64,000 nt of DNA from a virus. Taxonomy: Duplodnaviria > Caudoviricetes. The translations under genes were made by a program, and so were the position numbers. The DNA lies in the IMG/VR virus record IMGVR_UViG_2648501128_000003, positions 2,151 to 66,150 of that record; one strand, 5' to 3'. The notes under the pieces are model-generated. The model was not told the DNA's origin and ran no database searches. It saw only the letters and a program-made list of their open reading frames with translations. Below are positions 2,817 to 39,824 of the stretch, in pieces; the first letter of the stretch is position 1; each line of letters opens with the position of its first letter.

Positions 2817-3098
2817 ATGTATAAATTAATGAACGCTGTTGTGCAAAATAAGCTACACCCTAATACATTTGAAATACCCACTAAATCTGATATCGCGAAG
2901 ATAAAAATAGACACTTATGTAAAACTATGTTTTGAAGAAGTAGGAAAGCAGTCTGAAAGAATGTGGGTGTTAGTAACATTTGCAGATGGGGAAAATTTTA
3001 ACGGCGTTTTGCACAATCAGCCAGTAGGGCTACGCAGTGTAAAACATGGTGACGTTGTGAAGTTTAAACATTACAACATACTTTCGGCACCTTATTAG
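2817..3098 (+). CDS. DUF2314-like hypothetical protein
   Basis: YVKLCF..ERMWV..GVLHNQP motif; RBS AAAGGA. Confidence 0.55.
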   Translation: MYKLMNAVVQNKLHPNTFEIPTKSDIAKIKIDTYVKLCFEEVGKQSERMWVLVTFADGENFNGVLHNQPVGLRSVKHGDVVKFKHYNILSAPY

Positions 3099-3115
3099 AA
3101 AGGGGAATCGTTAAT

Positions 3116-3472
3116 ATGACGAAAAAGGTAACGCTACCTCGCGAAGTCGCGGAGGCAATCGAAATGTATTTAGGGGAGTTCGGTAAAAAGACGTTGCTAT
3201 ACACGTTCTGTAATCCGAAAACATTTGGCTGGACGCCGAAATACAGCGCATTCCATAAGTTAGATTTAGACACGTTAATGTCCGCACTTGTCAACGGCTA
3301 CGAAATCGAAAAGTCGCCCGAAGAAAAGGTGCGAGAATATTTGAACGAGACGGAGCGGTGTCGCGTGAATGCAGATACGTCTTCGCACTACCAGTTTTTT
3401 AGAGGTCGAACAGAGGGCGTCATAGTAACGCTTAACCTACTTGGCATCCAAATCGAAGGCATAAATGCGTAA
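3116..3472 (+). CDS. DUF1642-like phage protein
   Basis: KKVTLPREVAEAIE..LMSALVNGYEIE. Confidence 0.65.
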   Translation: MTKKVTLPREVAEAIEMYLGEFGKKTLLYTFCNPKTFGWTPKYSAFHKLDLDTLMSALVNGYEIEKSPEEKVREYLNETERCRVNADTSSHYQFFRGRTEGVIVTLNLLGIQIEGINA

Positions 3473-3544
3473 GCTCAACGCATGATTTTTCCGGCAAATT
3501 AGACGCTTTAAGCACGAACTAATACGAAAGGTAGGAGAAGTTAA

Positions 3545-3850
3545 ATGTCGCTAAATATCACGGTAAATTCCACGTATAAACTAACGTCAGACCCGATGCA
3601 AGTCATTGTTAATCGCAAGCACATCGTAGACCCAACGAAGTCACCGAATTGGGAACGCATGAAAGCGGAGGGCAAGTCCGGCGAGCCTCGTATAGAATGG
3701 CGCGAGGTTGCGTATTGCCGAACGGTCGAGCAAGCGTTGAATTGGATTGCGGAACAGACACAGCGCGATAGCAATGCGGAGTCGATAGCGGAATTGCTAG
3801 GCGAAATACAAGCGATTCGGCGCGAAATTAACGCGATAACAGCGAAGTAA
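3545..3850 (+). CDS. DUF5405-like phage protein
   Basis: YKLTSDPMQVIV..WREVAYCRTVEQAL; RBS AGGAG. Confidence 0.6.
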   Translation: MSLNITVNSTYKLTSDPMQVIVNRKHIVDPTKSPNWERMKAEGKSGEPRIEWREVAYCRTVEQALNWIAEQTQRDSNAESIAELLGEIQAIRREINAITAK

Positions 3851-11991: not shown

Positions 11992-12201
11992 TTAGTCGTA
12001 GTGCCATTCGTAAAGGTCTTCGATGGAACAATGGAGTATGTCCGCGAAGACTTTTGCGGTTGTCACTTTCATTATGTATCGCTTATTTTCATAATCGCCA
12101 ATTAACCCTTTGTCGACGTTTGAACGCTCGGATAATTGTTGCTGCGTTAATCCTTGCGCTAATCGGCGCTCTCGAAGCAGACACTTTCCGACTTGTGGCG
12201 T
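11992..12201 (-). CDS. XRE-family HTH regulator (69 aa) with apparent ACG start
   Basis: PQVGKCLLRERRLAQGLTQQQLSERSNVDKGLIGDYEN..FADILHCSIEDLYEW; RBS GAGGTG; in-frame TGA just upstream. Confidence 0.75.
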   Translation of the reverse strand, partial: TPQVGKCLLRERRLAQGLTQQQLSERSNVDKGLIGDYENKRYIMKVTTAKVFADILHCSIEDLYEWHYD

Positions 12202-12217
12202 CGTATCTCACCTCGTT

Positions 12218-12436
12218 TTATTCCTCGGTATTCATATCTCCTAATTCTAATTCAATTACTTTTTCGATAGGCACGTTTAAGTGTGTACAAATTTTATGTA
12301 TTGTAGCCAGACTAACCGGTTCATTTCTACTAATAATAGCTTGTGTTCTGGAGTTAAGACCGATAGTGTCCCGCAAATCACTAAGAACTAAACCTTTCTG
12401 TTTTAAAGTTTCTTTAAGTGGTCTATAATTTAACAA
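12218..12436 (-). CDS. XRE/Cro-C1 HTH repressor (HTH_26-like)
   Basis: YRPLKETLKQKG..VSLATIHKICTHLNVPIEKVIE; RBS GGAGGTG. Confidence 0.88.
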   Translation of the reverse strand: MLNYRPLKETLKQKGLVLSDLRDTIGLNSRTQAIISRNEPVSLATIHKICTHLNVPIEKVIELELGDMNTEE

Positions 12437-12457
12437 TTTTATTCACCTCCGAAATCA

Positions 12458-12492
12458 AAAATGTTTACATTTGTAAACATTTTGAGTATAAT
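12458..12492 (+). promoter_or_regulatory. SigA promoter for aimR overlapped by a palindromic operator
   Basis: TTTACA(12464)-17 bp-TATAAT(12487); AAAATGTTTACA-TT-TGTAAACATTTT inverted repeat. Confidence 0.7.
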
Positions 12493-12560
12493 CTAGCTAA
12501 CTACAAAAATGAGTATATCACAAGAATGCAGCGGATTAAATAAAGAAATGAGGTTTTTGT

Positions 12561-13721
12561 ATGATTGCAAACGATATTGAGTCCCAATTAGACACATTCG
12601 AAACGAAAATCAATATAAAAACCCTTTCAGAAATGTCAGGCGTTGCAGAAGCAACAATAAGACGTATTCTTAAGCGCAATCATGAAACGAATTTTTTAAA
12701 TTTATATTTAATTTGCAATATTTTATTCGACGATGACACATTAATTAGGTGGTCTTATTCTTTTGAGTTACCTAATAATATGAAAGCAGCTATGGAATTT
12801 ATGCTACTTAAAAATAAACTCGATGACCTTGATAAATACATAAGGACAAAAGTAAGTAAATGGGACAACAAAAGTGCCAAAAAGTGGGCAAAGGTCTATT
12901 CAATTATTTCCGAGTACGAAAGAAATCCTACCGACCACTTAAAAACACTTAAAAAAATTCGCGGAATATCAGGTTCTGACAAAGAGCTTGAAATCCTTTT
13001 GAAGCTAGTAGAGGCTAATATATTTTATAGAATAGTAGCGGATAATTCATCTTACTTACATGAAATGTCTAGATTATTATTTGAGATAAAAGACCATATT
13101 GGCAACACTAAAGATTTCCTATATGAAGCCTTTAGTTGTAGGTTGAATGACTTGATGAGTAAAAATTTGTTATACGTAAAATCAGATGTAAATAAGGCTA
13201 GACAATACGCAAAGAAAAATATTTATCAAAATATATGTCCGTTATTCAAAGCGAACGCATTATATCTAATAGGTGTTTCTAACATGTTCGAGAGCTACGA
13301 AATTTGCTTACAATACACAAAAAAAGCAATTGACACCTATAGAGTAGCTGGGCACGATAAGTACGCTAACGACCTGGAAAGAAGCGCCGTTCCGTTGATC
13401 AAAGCGCATTTTGGAGTGAAATACGACGAGGAAACAAAAGACCTTTCGGAAATTGCGCATTATGAAGCGAAATGGGGGGATAAGCAAAAATCGAAAAAAA
13501 TAATAAATAAGTTAATAGAAGATTCCGGAGAGACAATGTATCGGCTGTATTATAAAGGAATGGCTGAAGAAAACGAAGAAGCTCTTTTTAAATCACTAAC
13601 GCAATTTCTGAAAATAGGAGATAATTTTTTCGCGCAATTCCCTCTAAATCAACTTCGTAGATCGTCAAATACTAATATGCGCACAATGGCGGAAATGCTT
13701 TACACACAATTTATAAATTAG
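12561..13721 (+). CDS. aimR: AimR-like arbitrium receptor (N-terminal HTH + TPR helices)
   Basis: 386 aa; N-terminal HTH; C-terminal YYKGMAE..SLTQFLKIGDNFFAQFPL typical of AimR; followed by a secreted peptide gene. Confidence 0.88.
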   Translation: MIANDIESQLDTFETKINIKTLSEMSGVAEATIRRILKRNHETNFLNLYLICNILFDDDTLIRWSYSFELPNNMKAAMEFMLLKNKLDDLDKYIRTKVSKWDNKSAKKWAKVYSIISEYERNPTDHLKTLKKIRGISGSDKELEILLKLVEANIFYRIVADNSSYLHEMSRLLFEIKDHIGNTKDFLYEAFSCRLNDLMSKNLLYVKSDVNKARQYAKKNIYQNICPLFKANALYLIGVSNMFESYEICLQYTKKAIDTYRVAGHDKYANDLERSAVPLIKAHFGVKYDEETKDLSEIAHYEAKWGDKQKSKKIINKLIEDSGETMYRLYYKGMAEENEEALFKSLTQFLKIGDNFFAQFPLNQLRRSSNTNMRTMAEMLYTQFIN

Positions 13722-13734
13722 GAGGAATTAGTCA

Positions 13735-13863
13735 ATGAATATCAAAAAGAAAATCATCGCTAGTATCGGAGTAGTCTTAGTTAGTTTAGTACTGTTTGTA
13801 TCTGTGGGTGGAGGAGTTAATGTCGCCGATCTTCCTCGCGGCGGATTTATATTCACGAAATAG
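13735..13863 (+). CDS. aimP: AimP-like arbitrium pre-peptide (42 aa), predicted mature DLPRGG
   Basis: MNIKKKIIASIGVVLVSLVLFVSVGGGVNVA-DLPRGG-FIFTK; RBS AGGAGG; signal peptide plus xxPRGx motif like GMPRGA. Confidence 0.85.
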   Translation: MNIKKKIIASIGVVLVSLVLFVSVGGGVNVADLPRGGFIFTK

Positions 13864-13871
13864 ACAAGCGA

Positions 13872-13900
13872 AGGCACCCAAATCGGGTGTCTTTTTTTGT
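13872..13900 (+). terminator. Terminator after aimP
   Basis: AGGCACCC-AAATC-GGGTGTCT-TTTTTT. Confidence 0.8.
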
Positions 13901-14076
13901 TTACAGAAGTACACATTTTTACCTTGTCCAAATCATGTACGTTTCCAAATAAAACCTTGGTAATTTAGTACAATTTAATTATCAGATAAATTCAATAAAA
14001 CTTTTTTCAAAAAACATGTTCGAAATTAAAGTCACTTGGATTATATCTAGTATAAGAAAAAATGGAGGTAAATAAC

Positions 14077-23940: not shown

Positions 23941-24482
23941 TGAGGATCCTCTCGTTTGACACCAGTCTTTCAGCGCCAGGAGTCTCCATCATCGAAGTTG
24001 TTCGCGGCATCCCACGCATCATCGACCTGTCGCACATCACGACCGACTCGAAAACGCAAACGCACGGACTGCGCGCTGACATAGTCGAAAGTTGGGCGAC
24101 GCTATTCCTCGCCAATCACGCGAAAAAAGGCTTCGATTTTATCACTCGCGAAGATTTCCACGGACAATCGAGCGCACAAAATTATCCGGTCATGGCTGCG
24201 TGGAGTGGTTGCGAAAGGGCTGTCGAGAAGTTCGGCTTCAAGTTCGACAAGTATACGTATATGCAAAAGAACGGGCGGAGAAAGACGTTGCTCGGCGTGC
24301 CGCAGTCGCAGGTCAAGTTGTTGGTAGTCGGTAAGGGGAACGCAGACAAGCCGGAAGTAGCCGAAGCCGTGCGAAAGTTGACGGGATACGCGGGAGAGTT
24401 CGCGAAGGACGATGAATCGGATGCATGTGCGGTGGGACTGGCGTATTTAATTAACGAAGGACTAATTAAGGGGGCGGTATGA
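23940..24482 (+). CDS. RuvC-like Holliday junction resolvase
   Basis: ILSFDTSLSAPG, VKLLVVGKGNADK, DDESDACAVG. Confidence 0.85.
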   Translation: MRILSFDTSLSAPGVSIIEVVRGIPRIIDLSHITTDSKTQTHGLRADIVESWATLFLANHAKKGFDFITREDFHGQSSAQNYPVMAAWSGCERAVEKFGFKFDKYTYMQKNGRRKTLLGVPQSQVKLLVVGKGNADKPEVAEAVRKLTGYAGEFAKDDESDACAVGLAYLINEGLIKGAV

Positions 24483-31704: not shown

Positions 31705-32300
31705 ACCACACGCTAGAAGTTTCGCGAAAAGTCACCGTCACCAAAATCGCCCTGACCGGCAAGCTACGGACGGGCAAGGACACCGTCGCGCACCACCTGT
31801 TCATTCGCAATAGCTTCCACAAGGTCGCGTTCGGTGACGCGCTCAAGCGAGTGGCGCACGACACTTTTCCATGGGTCAGCGAGTTTTCGAAGCCACGCGC
31901 GCTGTATCAGCAAGTCGGACAGCTTATGCGTGAAATTGAGCCGGACGTTTGGATTCGCCATGTCGAACGTCAAGTCGACGCGATTATCAACGTCAACAAG
32001 GACATGTGCGATCACGTCGGCGTGATAATCACGGATTTACGCCAGCCGAACGAATACGAGTGGGCGCGATCTAATGGGTTCACGATCATTCGCGTCAATG
32101 CGCCGGAAGCTGACCGGCTAGCACGAGCGCAACGAGCAGGCGACGACTTTGCCGCCGAGGACTTAGCGCACGATACCGAGCAGCATGTCGATGGGTTCAC
32201 GGTCGATTTCGAAGTGGTTAACGACGGGACGGTCGTGGAATTAAAAGCGAAAGTGGATGCGATTATGGCGGAGATTAACGCGAAAGGGGCGGTAAATTGA
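31701..32300 (+). CDS. Deoxynucleoside monophosphate kinase
   Basis: IALTGKLRTGKDT, FGDALK, PRALYQ, ITDLRQPNE, HDTE. Confidence 0.88.
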   Translation: MNHTLEVSRKVTVTKIALTGKLRTGKDTVAHHLFIRNSFHKVAFGDALKRVAHDTFPWVSEFSKPRALYQQVGQLMREIEPDVWIRHVERQVDAIINVNKDMCDHVGVIITDLRQPNEYEWARSNGFTIIRVNAPEADRLARAQRAGDDFAAEDLAHDTEQHVDGFTVDFEVVNDGTVVELKAKVDAIMAEINAKGAVN

Positions 32301-33727
32301 TTCGCAGAATGTTGCGTAAGGAGCGAACTGACTACGGAAAAAGGATGCGAGGACAGTACGAATCGGGCGAATTTTGGGATAGTCGTCACAACATGACGGT
32401 ACATGCAATTAGACCTGACGAACTGTCGAATACATTGTCAACCGTGTTAAAAGACAATTTGCTAATCGAAATTCATGGCGTTAGTGAGCCGAAAGGGAGC
32501 GATAAATTGACGAATATACACGAAGTTTTCGAAGGTAATCCGTTCACATACGTATCCTTATTCAGCGGTATTGGCGGATTCGAGCAAGCACTAAACAAAC
32601 TCGGTGGCACTTGCATGATGGCGTCCGAAATTGACAAGTACGCAAATCAAGCGTACGAGGTGCTCTACGGACATCCGACGGTAGGCGACGTGACAAAAGT
32701 CGAGGCCGCGGACGTCCCCGACCACGACTTACTTGTCGGTGGTTTTCCGTGCCAAGCGTTCTCAGTCGCCGGCAAGCGATTGGGATTCGACGACACGCGC
32801 GGAACACTATTTTTCGAGATTGCGAGAATAGCATCGGAAAAGAAACCGAAGGCGCTACTGCTCGAAAACGTAAAAGGACTCGTTTAGCACGACAAAGGGC
32901 GTACGCTTGACTCAATCGTTCAAACGTTAAATGACATCGGCTACACGGTCGATTTCGAAGTATTAAATTCGAAGTATTTCGGAGTTCCGCAGAATCGAGA
33001 GCGAATATTTATCGTGGCAGTTCGCGTCGACTTAGTCGAACAAGAACCGTGGGTAATAGGCAAACGCACGGACGTTGTAGAGAAAGGTAAACAAAGAATT
33101 GGCTCTTTGGCGGGTGTCAAGACGTTTAACTTCGATTATCCTTCGCAAAATGAGGTTGCGACAAGGTTACGGGATATTCTCGAATCGGACGTAGATGAAA
33201 AGTTTTATTTATCGGAGGAAAAGACGGCGAAACTGGTGGCGCAGTTGGAAGAAAGAGGCTTAAAAGATACGGACGGAATCGACGTCGCGGGCAACCTTAA
33301 ACCTCCCACATGTACTCGCATAGGTCAGCGTGACGATGTTTGGAGTGCTAACGGGGTAGCAAGGACGCTTAACGCTACCGATTATAAACAACTCCGACCA
33401 ATAGCGGAAGTCCGCCCCGTCCTTACGCCCGATCGTTTAGAAAAACGGTAAAATGGACGGAGATTTAAAGACGATGGAGAAGAAGCGTTCACGCTTACGG
33501 CGCAAGATAAACACGGCGTGGCTGTCGGCAAGCATCCACGTTACCGCATCCGCAAACTAACACCGTTAGAGTGTTTCCGCCTTCAAGGCTTTCCGGACGT
33601 GGCGCACCAAGCGTTAGTCGACGCAGGTATATCGAACTCGCAGCGATATAAAATGGCGGGCAACGCCGTCACTGTAAACGTAATAGACGCGATAGGCAGG
33701 CGTCTATTACCGTATTTAGCGAAATAG
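32297..33727 (+). pseudogene. Multispecific C5-cytosine DNA methyltransferase interrupted by TAG (32885) and TAA (33449)
   Basis: FSGIGG, GFPCQ, ENVKGLV*HDKG, QNRERIF, LTPLECFRLQGF, GNAV all in one frame. Confidence 0.9.
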
Positions 33728-34188: not shown

Positions 34189-35013
34189 TCACAACCAGCC
34201 GACGAAACTCGGCAAGCGCAACAAACCAGCCTTTGTTAAATTACGATATTTGACGCGACATTTGATCGGCGAGATATACGCAAACTTGTCGTTTTCGCGG
34301 GTAACTTGCGCACGGTAAACCTTCGGCTTTTCCTTCGCTGGCACGCCGAGTTCCATGACGCCAAGGTAACGACCGTCCTCGTCAGCGAGCAGCCAGCCGA
34401 AGTCCTTTTTCGCGTAACCAATTACGTAAACGTCCGCAAATTGGTAGTTAATCACCTTGAGCCAGTCGTGCGACCGTTTGCCGACTTGGTAACGTGAATC
34501 CTTACGCTTTAAAACGATGCCTTCGAGAGCCTGCTCCTTGACTGCTTCGTAATAAGCCACGCCGTTGCCTTCGATAAATTGCGATTTTGCTAGTTGTGTA
34601 GAATCGGTCGGCACGAGGTCGGCGAGCATTTCCTTGCGCTCGAACAGCGGTCGGCTAGTCACGCGTTTACCTTCGAGTTGAATAACGTCAAACGCAACGA
34701 AAGTAACAGGCGTTTCCCCGGCTTGCTTAGCGCCAGCTTGAAAACGGCTCATGACCGCCTCGAAGTCCGGCTTGCCTGCGCTGTCACTTACGATTAACTC
34801 GCCGTCGAGCGTTGTGCTAGGCGGAAGGGCAAGCGAGTGCAATTCGGGAAACTTTGCGGTCAATTCGTTGTTATGGCGCGAGTACATGCGGACTTTGCCC
34901 GCAGAATCAACGGAATATATTAAACGGATGCCGTCGAGCTTCAATTCGGCAATATAATCCGAATCGTCGAACGGCTCGTCCGATTTGTGCAATAACATTG
35001 GCGAAACAAACAC
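34189..35013 (-). CDS. ATP-dependent DNA ligase (LigD ligase domain-like)
   Basis: ELKLDGIR, LDGEL, FDV, EGIVLK, WLKV, LRLPSF; RBS GAGGTG. Confidence 0.93.
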   Translation of the reverse strand: MFVSPMLLHKSDEPFDDSDYIAELKLDGIRLIYSVDSAGKVRMYSRHNNELTAKFPELHSLALPPSTTLDGELIVSDSAGKPDFEAVMSRFQAGAKQAGETPVTFVAFDVIQLEGKRVTSRPLFERKEMLADLVPTDSTQLAKSQFIEGNGVAYYEAVKEQALEGIVLKRKDSRYQVGKRSHDWLKVINYQFADVYVIGYAKKDFGWLLADEDGRYLGVMELGVPAKEKPKVYRAQVTRENDKFAYISPIKCRVKYRNLTKAGLLRLPSFVGWL

Positions 35014-35090
35014 GTAAATCACCTCGCTTTAATTATAACAATTTCGATAGATTAACGGATTAGGAGACTAATGGAAACGGAGGCGGACTA

Positions 35091-35498
35091 ATGGGCGCAA
35101 TTAGCGAAAAGGAACGACGGCTCGAATCGAAATATCCCGCGCTAGACAATCCGGCGGGCGTCCGCATGCTCCTCGGCGATTACCACGCGTTGAAAGAACG
35201 CCAGTATGCCGGCGACTATGACGCGGTCGTAATACTCGTCGACCTGGCAACGGCGATCGAGCGGGCTGGGCTTACGGATAGGCAGCGTGAGGCCCTGCGG
35301 TTGGTGTTCGAGGATGACTTATCGCAGGTAGATACAGCGGACATGCTTGGCGTGAGTAAGCAGACGGTCAATCGGTTGGTAAGCGTGGGACTGGCGAAAG
35401 TGGCGAGAGTGTTCGAGAGTTGGGCGAGGCAAGGCGAAGGTTACAGTTTAGACGTAAATGAGACGGAAGGGGAGCGACAGAATGACGAAATTCATTAA
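35091..35498 (+). CDS. Sigma-70 region-4 HTH protein, candidate late activator
   Basis: LTDRQREALRL..LSQVDTADMLGVSKQTV. Confidence 0.8.
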   Translation: MGAISEKERRLESKYPALDNPAGVRMLLGDYHALKERQYAGDYDAVVILVDLATAIERAGLTDRQREALRLVFEDDLSQVDTADMLGVSKQTVNRLVSVGLAKVARVFESWARQGEGYSLDVNETEGERQNDEIH

Positions 35499-36264
35499 CG
35501 AAATATTGACGGGCGATAACGTGGAGATCTTACGTTTAATTGACGATAATTTCGTAGACTTGACGGTTACAAGTCCTCCATATGACGATTTACGCGCATA
35601 TAACGGGTACACATGGGATCCCGAACTTTTAGCAAATGAACTGTATCGTGTTACGAAAGACGGTGGCGTCGTTGTTTGGATAGTCGGTGACAGGACAGTA
35701 AAAGGATCCGAGACGGGCAGCAGTTTTAAACAAGCATTAACTTTCATGGACACTGGTTTTCGTTTACACGATACGATGATTTATATGAAAGATTCTATCA
35801 GTTTTCCGGAAACTACTCGATATTATCAGATATTTGAATACATGTTTATTTTCAGTAAGGGATCCCCGAAAACAGTTAATTTAATATCCGACCGGAAAAA
35901 CAAATGGGTCGGTCATCGGATTAGAGGACGGGAACGACAGGTAGATGGATCCTTGGCAGGTCGTCGGAAAGGGAATCCTGTAAAAGAGTTTGGTGTTAGG
36001 TATAACATATGGCAAGTCTCGACCGGGTACATGAAATCTTCGAAAGACGTAATTGCGTATGACCATCCTGCAATCTTTCCGGAATCATTAGCGGAAGATC
36101 ATATATTAAGTTGGTCGGATCCCGGCGGTATTGTATTGGATCCGTTCGGGGGTTCCGGTACAACAGCGAAAATGGCGAAGATAAACGGTCGTCAATTTAT
36201 CCACACCGACATTAGCGAAGAATATAACGAAATTGCACGTAGACGATTGGAGGACATCGCATGA
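35482..36264 (+). CDS. Beta-class N4-cytosine DNA methyltransferase, M.BamHII-like
   Basis: TSPPY then HPAIFP and DPFGGSGTT; sequence closely follows my recollection of M.BamHII; RBS AAGGGGAG. Confidence 0.88.
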   Translation: MTKFINEILTGDNVEILRLIDDNFVDLTVTSPPYDDLRAYNGYTWDPELLANELYRVTKDGGVVVWIVGDRTVKGSETGSSFKQALTFMDTGFRLHDTMIYMKDSISFPETTRYYQIFEYMFIFSKGSPKTVNLISDRKNKWVGHRIRGRERQVDGSLAGRRKGNPVKEFGVRYNIWQVSTGYMKSSKDVIAYDHPAIFPESLAEDHILSWSDPGGIVLDPFGGSGTTAKMAKINGRQFIHTDISEEYNEIARRRLEDIA

Positions 36265-36773
36265 CATCAAACGAATTCAACGCAAAAATAGACGAACTAT
36301 GGTCGCAAACAAAAGCGGGCAACCTACCGCGCGAAGAAAGGTTCGTCGCAATCGAACGACTGACGGACAGATATATCACCGCAACAGGCAAACGACCGGA
36401 TCCATCGCAGCTCGACCGATTGGCGACGCTGTGCTTGTACGAGGAAGTGACGGACGATAGACCTGACAAAATGACGTTAGAAGAATACCCGATTATGAGC
36501 GATGAGCAATACGCGAGAAGAACAGAGGGAAAGCACGTAAGGCGGCACGGTAAAGACGGTAAATTGTTACCGAATAAGACAGAGATACCTTTAAATGCTG
36601 CGTTTGACTATGGTACGGACGGTAAGAATTATCGTACACCAAAAAGACGCCCACTTTCTACTGATGAGGCGTCGCGTGCAGACGCGAAACTAACGAGAAA
36701 TAAAGAGAGACGACGTAAATACAATGAATTCATCAAGCCCGGAATAGTGGAGGTGTCTTATATTGGCGATTAG
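36261..36773 (+). CDS. Hypothetical phage protein
   Basis: RBS GGAGG; DKMTLEEYPIMS motif. Confidence 0.72.
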   Translation: MTSNEFNAKIDELWSQTKAGNLPREERFVAIERLTDRYITATGKRPDPSQLDRLATLCLYEEVTDDRPDKMTLEEYPIMSDEQYARRTEGKHVRRHGKDGKLLPNKTEIPLNAAFDYGTDGKNYRTPKRRPLSTDEASRADAKLTRNKERRRKYNEFIKPGIVEVSYIGD

Positions 36774-37314
36774 TATTACACTACCTGACGATAAATTAAC
36801 TTTTAATCGGGTCGAGTATAAACAAGTAAAGGACACACTTAAAATTAAGCCTTCGGGTGTATATTTTCTGTATGACGTGAATGGAGAGTTGCTTTACGTA
36901 GGAAAAACTAATAACTTTCGCAGTCGGTTACTTAGTCATTTCCGTGGCAGAGACGTATCTAAACCGTTTTATAGATTAATAGATTCTGTTAAAGTTTATT
37001 TTGTAGATGATAACTATGAGCGAGAACTATATGAAACTTACGCTATTAATACCTTTATTCCAACGTTCAACAAGTCGAAAACTTATTACGACGATAAATC
37101 AGAAGAATTATTCGAAATTGAAGAACGGATTAGGGAGTTAGAGGAAGAAGCTTCGTCAATTCGTGAAGATATGTGCAGTGACGGTATGATTGACGAGGAT
37201 TTTGAAGATGATTTGCAATTAATAACAGGTATTTACTTCCTAAATGAAGAAAGGCTGCGCGCAATTGAAAGTGAAATAAAATCACTTAAAAAGAGAAAGG
37301 CGCTTACTTTGTGA
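36763..37314 (+). CDS. GIY-YIG nuclease-domain protein
   Basis: SGVYFLYD..LLYVGKT..RSRLLSH..E..I..PTFN. Confidence 0.85.
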   Translation: MAISITLPDDKLTFNRVEYKQVKDTLKIKPSGVYFLYDVNGELLYVGKTNNFRSRLLSHFRGRDVSKPFYRLIDSVKVYFVDDNYERELYETYAINTFIPTFNKSKTYYDDKSEELFEIEERIRELEEEASSIREDMCSDGMIDEDFEDDLQLITGIYFLNEERLRAIESEIKSLKKRKALTL

Positions 37315-37363: not shown

Positions 37364-37392
37364 GCTCGCCATATCGGCGGGCTTTTTATTTT
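37364..37392 (+). terminator. Rho-independent terminator
   Basis: GCTCGCC-ATATC-GGCGGGC-TTTTTATTTT. Confidence 0.75.
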
Positions 37393-38555: not shown

Positions 38556-38624
38556 TCGGTCAGCCAAAAGCTATCGGTAAATTTGCGGACAAAATCGGGG
38601 GTCTATCGGTAAATTCGCGGACAA
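38542..38624 (+). repeat. 22-bp direct repeats (iteron-like)
   Basis: CTATCGGTAAATTTGCGGACAA (38571), CTATCGGTAAATTCGCGGACAA (38603), degenerate copy at 38542. Confidence 0.75.
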
Positions 38625-38874
38625 CTTTCGAAACGCTGTACGATTAGAGCCGCAAGGGATTCAGCCGTTTTAAGGGGCAGAAATGGCGATATTATATCTT
38701 AATCTTTAGTAGCGTTAAAACCTTGCGCCTTCGCCTAACGGCTTGCCGCCACGATTCTTTATTTAAATACATTATCGCGAAAAGTAATAATAGTAGCAGA
38801 CGGTCGAGCGTAAGCGAGGCCGGCCTGCAGCGGTTTTAATCTTTTATCTAAACGGAAAGGAGTGCGTTAATCGA

Positions 38875-39048
38875 ATGTATTACGTTGTTTTACCGAGGTC
38901 AATTTTCGTAGGAAGTACGGGTTATGGCGTATGGGATGCCGTAGTAGACGATAGCGGCGATCTAATGTCGTTTGCAACGATAGAGGACGGAAGGAAGTAC
39001 GGAGAGGCAACCGGTAAGCACTACTTCGTGTTTTCGATTGTTGGTTAA
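38875..39048 (+). CDS. Small hypothetical protein (57 aa)
   Basis: RBS AAAGGAG. Confidence 0.5.
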   Translation: MYYVVLPRSIFVGSTGYGVWDAVVDDSGDLMSFATIEDGRKYGEATGKHYFVFSIVG

Positions 39049-39659
39049 CCGTTAGACATTACGCTAACCATTTCGCGGCTTATATTAATAAGAAGGAACG
39101 CGGTAAATGGCGGAGGGGCTGCGGTAAACATGCGTAATGCAAGTCGGTGATATCATCCGCGCGGAGCTGCCAGGACAGAAGCCCTTCGAAAACTCACGGG
39201 GTCAGCGAGTTGTGCCTGTTTCGCAAACAATTCCGATGATTTATCGCCAATTTTATGCGTATTTATATACACGCAAAACGCCAACGTTTATTCGTAGATT
39301 GCGGGAAATAACGATCTACCAAACGGTGGGACACCGCATGGATAGCGGAGTGTATAGGATAGTGCATAAACGGGTAAATCGCGAAATTGACAAACGTTGA
39401 TATGACGCGGTTTATGCATCGTATGAATTCCCTATAACCACGATTATGTCAACTAGGTATGCATATACAATACAGCGTTATGCGAACGTTTATACAACGA
39501 AATGTATAAAGATAATTGTCGTCGTTGTTTGAATTGTTCATACAATTGAAATAATTTAAACCCCCAAACAGCCGTTCGTATTTCAAGAAAATAGACGGTT
39601 GAAATTTGCGCAATATTTTTCGAACTCGGGGCGTCAATTTAACGGAGGTGTTTAGCGGA

Positions 39660-39770
39660 ATGCAGAAACGTATACCTTACGACGGTAAAATCGAAAATCT
39701 TCGCAAAGGTGAAGTCATATTAACGAAAGAGCAAGCGGTAAAACTATCGCAATCAAGCCCGAAAGCCTGA
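39660..39770 (+). CDS. 36-aa protein resembling the tape-measure C-terminal motif
   Basis: RBS GGAGGTG; RIPYDGKIENLRKGEVILTKEQA. Confidence 0.6.
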   Translation: MQKRIPYDGKIENLRKGEVILTKEQAVKLSQSSPKA

Positions 39771-39824
39771 CGGATGCCTAGCGTCGGGCTTTTCGGATAC
39801 ATAAAAGGAAAGGAGGAACGCTAA

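Follow-up and report, generated by a model that had tools for sequence, protein, structure and literature searches.

The window analysed here is a stretch of 64,000 nucleotides from the IMG/VR virus record IMGVR_UViG_2648501128_000003 (positions 2,151 to 66,150 of that record), which lies within a 5.3-Mb genome of 37.4% G+C content (G000:C11:1573781-1637780). Our subject is a gene at 35482..36264, on the plus strand, that encodes a DNA amino-methyltransferase and in which copies of the hexamer GGATCC are concentrated. Positions ~2,000 to 64,000 of the window form an island of 47% G+C within flanking DNA of ~36% G+C. Phage genes are found across this island, among them those for an anti-repressor, a DnaB-like helicase, a DNA polymerase, a ribonucleotide reductase, a large terminase, a portal protein and a major head protein, and the island represents a prophage of ~62 kb. 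Its G+C content (~47%) stands about 10 points above that of the host (~36-37%), and none of the 268 other species genomes of the host's family yielded a close homologue of the methyltransferase. Taken together, the offset in composition and the lack of homologues suggest that the phage lineage has not long been associated with this group of hosts.

The methyltransferase gene is an intact coding sequence (CDS) of 783 bp whose ATG, at 35482, follows a Shine-Dalgarno sequence (GGAAGGGGAG). From its translation and its matches in Pfam and PADLOC, the product (P0001, 260 residues) is a methyltransferase of the beta class. It matches PF01555 (N6_N4_Mtase) at 1.7e-39 with 136.5 bits, the cut-off being 26.7, over residues 25-253 and profile positions 1-220 of 221, and by the family profile it is a full-length member. 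The SPPY motif occupies residues 31-34 and LDPFGGSGTT residues 219-228, so that motif IV lies N-terminal to motif I, as is the order in the beta class; SPPY and DPFGGSGTT are invariant across an alignment of 20 sequences. SPPY is typical of enzymes that form N4-methylcytosine (m4C). The best matches by sequence among solved structures are the cytosine-N4 methyltransferases 8s9m and 8s9n, the aligned region (E=1.8e-16) being confined to the C-terminal 63 residues, and the protein scores far under the cut-offs of the adenine-specific NCBIfam models. The top PADLOC model is 'orphan methyltransferase' (oMTase, PDLC03714; 1.9e-110). The protein itself is unremarkable among the members of an established family. 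We read the CDS as encoding a putative orphan prophage N4-cytosine DNA methyltransferase that looks active. The original prediction, made by eye, had described it as an orphan N4-cytosine enzyme: the PADLOC match and neighbours that lack any nuclease family (see below) bear out the orphan status, and the N4-cytosine assignment stands to the extent that the protein is an intact N4/N6 amino-methyltransferase with SPPY. A second gene of the PF01555 family, an open frame of 379 residues, lies elsewhere on the host chromosome (G000:C11:1118255-1119148).

An exact search of the window finds GGATCC at 23944, 35616, 35704, 35860, 35947, 36117, 36138 and 36398 (n=8), in agreement with the positions and counts first noted by eye, including the single other copy at 23944. 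Six of the eight fall inside the methyltransferase CDS, a seventh follows 134 bp after the stop codon and one is elsewhere. The total is what dinucleotide shuffles of the window lead one to expect (7.71), and the anomaly is therefore one of placement, not of number. Site 1 (35616..35621, residue 45) is written TGG GAT CCC and encodes W-D-P, of which the tryptophan and the proline are derived within the subclade. Three sites are GGA TCC codon pairs for Gly-Ser: site 2 (35704..35709, residue 75) in K-G-S-E, site 3 (35860..35865, residue 127) in K-G-S-P, where the serine is derived and relatives have lysine, and site 4 (35947..35952, residue 156) in D-G-S-L. Site 5 (36117..36122, residue 212), TCG GAT CCC, encodes an S-D-P for which relatives have SNE or SNP, and site 6 (36138..36143, residue 219), TTG GAT CCG, encodes the L-D-P of motif I. 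The seventh site (36398..36403) encodes P-D-P in the downstream open reading frame (ORF) at 36261..36773, and the copy at 23944..23949 is the only one in the window away from this cluster. The gene also contains an AGATCT at 35525..35530 (codons E-I-L, residue 15), which brings its count of the degenerate word RGATCY to seven, against five in the remaining 61 kb of the island (7 of 12 in the gene). No RGATCY occurs between 20889 and 35525, and all the clustered sites are in coding sequence. They are spread over ~0.9 kb with gaps of 21-260 bp and show no phasing, and we found no internal repeat, longer shared motif or operator-like consensus around the hexamers. We considered whether GATC, rather than GGATCC, is the signal, and rejected this because only two of the eight in-gene GATC words lie outside GGATCC, one of them being the AGATCT at 35525. 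An artefact of assembly or cloning was likewise rejected, as the sites are in frame, in conserved motifs, in an intact gene and in a complete phage genome.

The excess of GGATCC in the gene is not explained by its protein sequence and codon usage. Synonymous resampling with the codon usage of the phage gave a mean of 0.75 GGATCC, and none of 20,000 resampled sequences reached five or more; permutation of synonymous codons within the gene gave a mean of 1.04, with none of 20,000 reaching six or more. The codon-shuffled control that the original prediction had proposed as a means of refuting the claim was thus run, and the excess stands (mean 0.75-1.04 against six). The exact Poisson-binomial probability of at least six copies is 1.8e-6, or 6.7e-6 with a cruder codon table drawn from all ORFs, and of the nine codon positions that are able to carry GGATCC six do so. 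For RGATCY, seven in-gene copies compare with 1.5 expected under the exact codon null (P = 9.9e-5). The same bias is seen when the gene is compared with the rest of the phage: Gly-Ser is written GGATCC in 3 of 4 cases in the gene and in 0 of 65 elsewhere (Fisher P = 7.6e-5), and xAsp-Pro in 3 of 3 cases in the gene and in 1 of 23 elsewhere (P = 1.5e-3). As a look-elsewhere control, we scanned 107 motifs for clustering over the island; GGATCC at this gene came first (P ~1e-9), and the next unrelated motif was CACGTG (P = 0.026). Across the whole 5.3-Mb genome, the densest 1-kb cluster of GGATCC is the methyltransferase locus, with seven sites, the next best cluster having three.

The remainder of the island is, in contrast, depleted of GATC-family words. 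Outside the gene, the island contains five RGATCY (including a single AGATCT) where ~33 are expected, one TGATCA against 10.5, and 91 GATC against 238. Hexamers that contain GGATC are nearly absent there, with 0 copies of GGATCA/TGATCC against 18.5 expected and three of CGATCC/GGATCG against 35.5, whereas CGATCG (23 against 39.7) and CGATCA (33 against 40.8) are largely spared. This avoidance is part of a wider one, since seven 6-bp palindromes have zero copies in the island and the observed-to-expected ratio is below 0.3 for 21 of the 64; GGATCC outside the gene ranks 21 of 64 among the avoided palindromes. The sole TGATCA of the island, at 13396, is located in a stretch of low G+C content (34%, positions 12001-14000) inside the 47% G+C prophage. 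This stretch, which also carries an ORF of 386 residues (12561..13721) matching phrog_1728, a phage 'transcriptional regulator', may be a recently acquired insert.

The most informative comparison is with L151, a metagenomic contig that represents a syntenic, related prophage and whose methyltransferase is 86% identical to P0001. Only 26 of 81 four-fold degenerate sites are identical between the two genes, which amounts to saturation. Nonetheless, L151 has RGATCY at four of the focal site positions: GGATCC at residues 45 and 156, as in the focal gene, and GGATCT at residues 75 and 127. The codons that border the shared hexamers differ between the two genes. Under independence, the probability of this coincidence in position is 9e-4 for L151 given the focal sites and 7e-5 for the reverse. 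All four RGATCY of the 20.8-kb L151 locus are in its methyltransferase gene (P = 2e-6), the best non-compositional result of 16,416 locus-by-motif tests. The 20-kb flanks hold none against 7.9 expected and no TGATCA against 3.8, whereas CGATCG occurs there at its expected level (11 against 11.6). Because RGATCY positions are shared although synonymous sites are saturated, it appears that the hexamer itself has been retained, or repeatedly regained, by selection. Codon choice together with this diverged relative thus indicates that selection has kept the in-gene sites, and the comparison suggests that the relevant word is RGATCY.

We then asked how far the pattern extends, using 466 sampled loci that encode homologues, of which the first 353 comprise 283 distinct CDS; the relatives among them are not independent of one another. 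Among the first 226 loci, in-gene GGATCC is absent from 210, single in 12 and present at least twice in four, these four (focal, L151, L070 and L071) being the nearest full-length relatives in that set. Among the 283 CDS, at least two copies are found in the focal gene, L151, the Bacillus clade members L312, L316, L317, L071 and L311, and L277, an outlier of 54% identity. A further 87 distinct genes gave 82 with no site, three with one and two with two (one of the latter being L414, 63% identity). When the 283 CDS were screened with 80 palindromes, the focal gene with GGATCC came top, and GGATCC was also among the top 20 results for L071, L277 and L312. An independent codon table could be built for 185 of the 283 genes, the others being dropped for having fewer than 1,500 flanking codons or stops. 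By the codon null, genes of 60-99% identity hold 15 GGATCC where 5.7 are expected (n=17), whereas the bins below 60% hold one against 9.5 (n=35), six against 20.3 (n=95) and five against 7.2 (n=37), in sum 12 against 37.0 (n=167). We therefore rejected a property of the whole family, given that 210 of 226 loci lack an in-gene site and that homologues below 60% identity are depleted of GGATCC. A general tendency of homologues to contain other palindromes as 'self-sites' was also rejected, because the screen returned only noise and AT-rich compositional matches. In the flanks of the 16 closest loci, GGATCC occurs 11 times against 34.9 expected, and five of the 11 copies lie within 2 kb of the gene.

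Among the closer relatives, the Bacillus SPbeta/H2-like clade has GGATCC at two conserved motifs, the G-S-E of residue 75, where five genes of the clade and L277 share site 2, and the L-D-P of residue 219. Three of the other focal sites came about through changes of residue, from F-D/N-F to W-D-P, from KGKP to KGSP and from SNE or SNP to SDP. The original prediction had stated that M.BamHII differs at WDP, KGSP and SDP, hinting at gained sites, and the alignment bears this out in other relatives: relatives have other residues at these positions, and amino-acid changes gave rise to the sites. The same SDP site was gained in parallel in L233. We also observed that L277, an IMG/VR contig of 4,052 bases that falls on a separate branch, has three in-gene GGATCC (residues 23, 75 and 219) in its gene at 2906-3691, where 0.40 are expected, and that its short flanks hold none. 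Two additional viral scans queried with P0004 and P0007 yielded no further member of the focal subclade. In public sequencing runs, one soil metagenome contained 13% of the sampled words, and from three runs we obtained four contigs, 151-198 bases long, which cover none of the first five sites.

The genes around the methyltransferase provide no candidate for a partner nuclease. Immediately upstream, and overlapping the start of the methyltransferase gene by 17 bp, is a plus-strand gene (35091..35498) for a phage regulator resembling sigma-70 region 4 (phrog_3512, 2.3e-23; PF04545), in which there is no RGATCY. Downstream, the ATG of a plus-strand ORF of 170 residues (P0124, 36261..36773; phrog_13088, function unknown) overlaps the methyltransferase stop codon in the sequence ATGA. 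We examined this ORF as a hidden restriction enzyme and rejected it, since it matches no Pfam, NCBIfam or PADLOC family and an atlas search returned only weak helical look-alikes. The second gene downstream encodes a free-standing GIY-YIG nuclease-like protein (36763..37314; PF01541, 1.4e-8), has a strong terminator-like hairpin behind it (37364..37382) and was not found by tblastx in the syntenic L151. On the other side, the block adjoins a minus-strand gene for a phage ATP-dependent DNA ligase (34189..35022; PF01068). None of these neighbours (the regulator, the 170-residue ORF, the GIY-YIG protein and the ligase) belongs to a nuclease family of the restriction-modification type, which makes the methyltransferase an orphan. 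Beyond the ligase, a C5-cytosine DNA methyltransferase gene (PF00145) is distributed over three ORFs, 32297..32887 with the N-terminal motifs, 33014..33451 with no family match and 33518..33727 with the C-terminal motif, and looks like the remnant of a second anti-restriction methyltransferase that has decayed; the motif clustering scan detected no palindrome cluster in it. The segment with the ligase and the C5-methyltransferase is missing from L151. Further along the island, 1.27 kb directly 5' of the large terminase gene (38556-39824) contains only ORFs of at most 87 residues and no tRNA, and no small terminase gene was recognised in this interval.

As to the target of the enzyme, its nearest named relative is a methyltransferase of 274 residues from B. 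amyloliquefaciens (WP_240692085.1, 69% identity); a search of the phage database with that protein returned no informative annotation. M.BamHII is the 'proviral H2 BamHI methylase' of Bacillus amyloliquefaciens, and the focal enzyme may be M.BamHII-like, as had been proposed when the gene was first singled out. A published counterpart is BAMTA208_6525, a prophage-derived methyltransferase of B. amyloliquefaciens TA208, for which a study reports formation of m4C, silence in the lysogen and protection of BamHI and BglII sites and, partly, of BclI sites, that is, of RGATCY and partially of TGATCA (PMC3459991). This spectrum coincides with the in-gene sites, with the interchange of GGATCC and GGATCT in L151 and with the GATC-family words that both phages avoid. 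The focal enzyme resembles BAMTA208_6525 and M.BamHII in being prophage-borne, small (~260-275 residues), orphan and of the N4/N6 beta class with SPPY, and the published target of BAMTA208_6525 fits the words that are clustered and avoided here. It differs in that the focal host has 37% G+C and belongs to a family with no close homologue in 268 other genomes, and the accessible text on BAMTA208_6525 mentions no clustering of sites within the gene (PMC3459991). From these observations, we consider that the focal enzyme probably shares the RGATCY and partial TGATCA specificity of BAMTA208_6525. GGATCC is most probably among its predicted targets, which are likely to extend to the broader RGATCY. 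That the target may be RGATCY, and not strictly GGATCC, is suggested by that study and by the GGATCT at two conserved positions of L151.

To account for this arrangement, we propose a reading that combines linkage of sites and protector, selection for the sites and a self-enforcing architecture; we place it ahead of the alternatives but hold it tentatively, giving it somewhat less than an even chance. It builds on the observed clustering, codon excess, conservation in L151 and avoidance elsewhere, and supposes the specificity and activity of the enzyme as well as self-enforcement as the selective reason. BamHI, BglII, BstYI and BclI are enzymes of Bacillus, and phages of Bacillus might therefore plausibly combine site avoidance with methylation. 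The phage would counter restriction of the Bacillus type in two ways, in that RGATCY, TGATCA and many other palindromes would have been purged from the 62 kb and the leftover sites would be methylated. Sites elsewhere in a mosaic genome can be parted from the methyltransferase by recombination and would be purged, while the methyltransferase gene would be the sole stretch that recombination never parts from a working protector. Being inseparable from it, cognate sites within the gene would not be purged. In-gene sites would have been gained by synonymous and amino-acid changes and then kept by selection, at about 8 times the neutral level. As most substrates of the enzyme in the phage would then sit in its own gene, an inactive allele would leave a cleavable cluster of 0.9 kb, and survival of the phage in restricting hosts would be tied to an intact methyltransferase gene. 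Lineages of the gene with internal sites may thus resist decay, since a point-inactivated allele would itself be the main target of restriction. That loss-of-function alleles would become sensitive to restriction is a valid consequence of the in-gene sites if the predicted specificity holds. A suggestive contrast, although a single case, comes from the neighbouring C5-methyltransferase gene, which lacks a site cluster and has come apart into three ORFs. In its strongest form, the proposal is of a 'cis-addictive' orphan methyltransferase gene, whose own in-CDS cognate sites make activity indispensable in restricting hosts, and this form we regard as somewhat unlikely. Under such a view, the sites would counter the decay that strikes anti-restriction genes once avoidance has made them nearly useless.

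Several observations weigh against the proposed self-enforcing architecture. Selection that works by removing one's own defective descendants is of second order, and the strong conservation of individual sites is more easily explained by a direct function in cis. The arrangement is no true addiction, because a clean deletion of the gene takes its sites along. As only nine positions in the gene can carry the hexamer, the positions shared with L151 could reflect convergence and not retention. In the Bacillus SPbeta/H2-like clade, in-gene RGATCY matches the codon null (P = 0.1-0.8), each locus of 17.8-20 kb has 2-15 RGATCY in its flanks and six of 13 genes have no GGATCC; since this clade matches the null, the strong effect is confined to the focal/L151 lineage and amounts effectively to two data points. 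Across the host genome overall, GGATCC is not avoided (665 copies against 623 expected by a mononucleotide and 801 by a Markov model), and PF02923, the BamHI family, found no match in that genome, in a search that was silent on the control genomes too. From the lack of avoidance, and from the lack of a detected BamHI-family nuclease with its silent control, it follows that the selective agent is not visible in the host. The link of the focal enzyme to BAMTA208_6525 and M.BamHII rests on species, size and family, and its specificity is a prediction.

A direct function in cis might be autoregulation, in which the in-gene sites let the enzyme sense the methylation state of the phage and limit its own synthesis, be it through a roadblock to transcription on unmethylated sites, through titration by the sites or through methylation-dependent expression. 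We rank this explanation next and consider it unlikely. Conservation of individual sites at saturated divergence would suit such a first-order function better than the policing of a lineage, and the sites shared with L151 fall in the first 60% of the CDS. The promoters of CcrM and CfrBI carry cognate sites. The focal cluster is not of this type, as there is no RGATCY in the upstream region or promoter and every site is in coding sequence; to our knowledge, no known case of autoregulation spreads its sites across 0.8 kb of CDS. The hexamers also lack an extended operator-like consensus, and the sequence gives no sign of an effect on expression. Precedents in general do exist, one account describing methyltransferases that control their own genes through cognate sites or the state of their substrate (PMC12707154).

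Neutral relaxation would have sites drift upwards where they are always protected, with this gene as the chance extreme of a scan over many windows. The original prediction had offered relaxed avoidance among its alternatives, and it does account for tolerance of the sites, since linkage explains why avoidance ends at the gene, but it leaves unaccounted a count of about 8 times the neutral one (0.75 GGATCC and 1.5 RGATCY expected against 6 and 7; P = 1.8e-6 and 9.9e-5). The seventh site, 134 bp downstream, and the five of 11 clade flank sites within 2 kb of the gene agree with relaxation, as does the fit of the Bacillus-clade genes to the RGATCY codon null, and the finding was noticed by eye in the course of a very large scan. 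On the other hand, the independent relative L151 has the same positions despite saturation, and three sites required amino-acid changes that the null does not count, so that we judge neutral drift to be distinctly unlikely. Last in our ranking, and very unlikely, is that the hexamers are unrelated to the specificity of the enzyme and serve as a methylation-gated packaging or recombination signal like P1 pac or as the sites of another protein, or else that the enzyme has a different target motif. The specificity is predicted, the gene stands at the start of the late/packaging region about 3.4-3.5 kb upstream of the large terminase, and two genes further downstream is one for a GIY-YIG nuclease; in phage P1, pac cleavage is under the control of clustered Dam sites (PMC12707154). 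A signal like P1 pac would be a tight array of sites at or next to the small terminase gene, whereas the focal sites, as known here from sequence alone, extend over 0.9 kb at ~3.4 kb from the large terminase, with irregular gaps and no flanking consensus. Moreover, genes with multiple sites occur only among the closest relatives of the enzyme, the words that the phage avoids are precisely RGATCY and TGATCA, CGATCG being spared, and the interchange of GGATCC and GGATCT in L151 fits the published m4C specificity for RGATCY.

Each component of the arrangement has counterparts in known systems. Like the multispecific enzymes of SPbeta, phi3T and H2, T4 Dam and P1 Dmt, the focal methyltransferase has no partner nuclease, is part of a late or early-late operon and presumably protects progeny DNA; unlike in those cases, its phage is nearly without substrate sites except in the methyltransferase gene (7 of 12 RGATCY). 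CcrM, CfrBI, EcoRII, SsoII and LlaDII also have cognate sites in cis to their own methyltransferase genes, but these are one or two promoter or operator sites, whereas the focal gene has six or seven in its CDS and none upstream. As in addiction to Type II restriction-modification systems (post-segregational killing), loss of methylation would expose DNA and thereby penalise loss of the methyltransferase; here, however, there is no linked nuclease, the killer enzyme would come from future hosts and the vulnerable sites are in the gene and not chromosome-wide. A literature search, outside whose scope were subscription journals and REBASE notes, found no description of cognate sites clustered within a methyltransferase gene. 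What is unusual is the arrangement, in which cognate-type sites are concentrated and conserved in the CDS of an orphan methyltransferase while the genome is otherwise purged of them.

Orphan methyltransferases are common in phages, yet little is understood of their maintenance, their regulation and the way in which targets are assigned to them, and their specificity can usually not be read from sequence. If the pattern is not general, it would be a well-documented oddity of one phage lineage. If it is general, the clustering of sites within a gene would predict the specificity of an orphan methyltransferase from sequence alone. The case would then also offer a simple experimental system, in which a wild-type and a synonymously recoded allele can be compared in restricting and non-restricting hosts. 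Should the principle apply more widely, it would point to a new selective logic by which mobile elements keep their genes, enforced by the gene itself with no linked toxin, or else to methylation feedback of a new kind.

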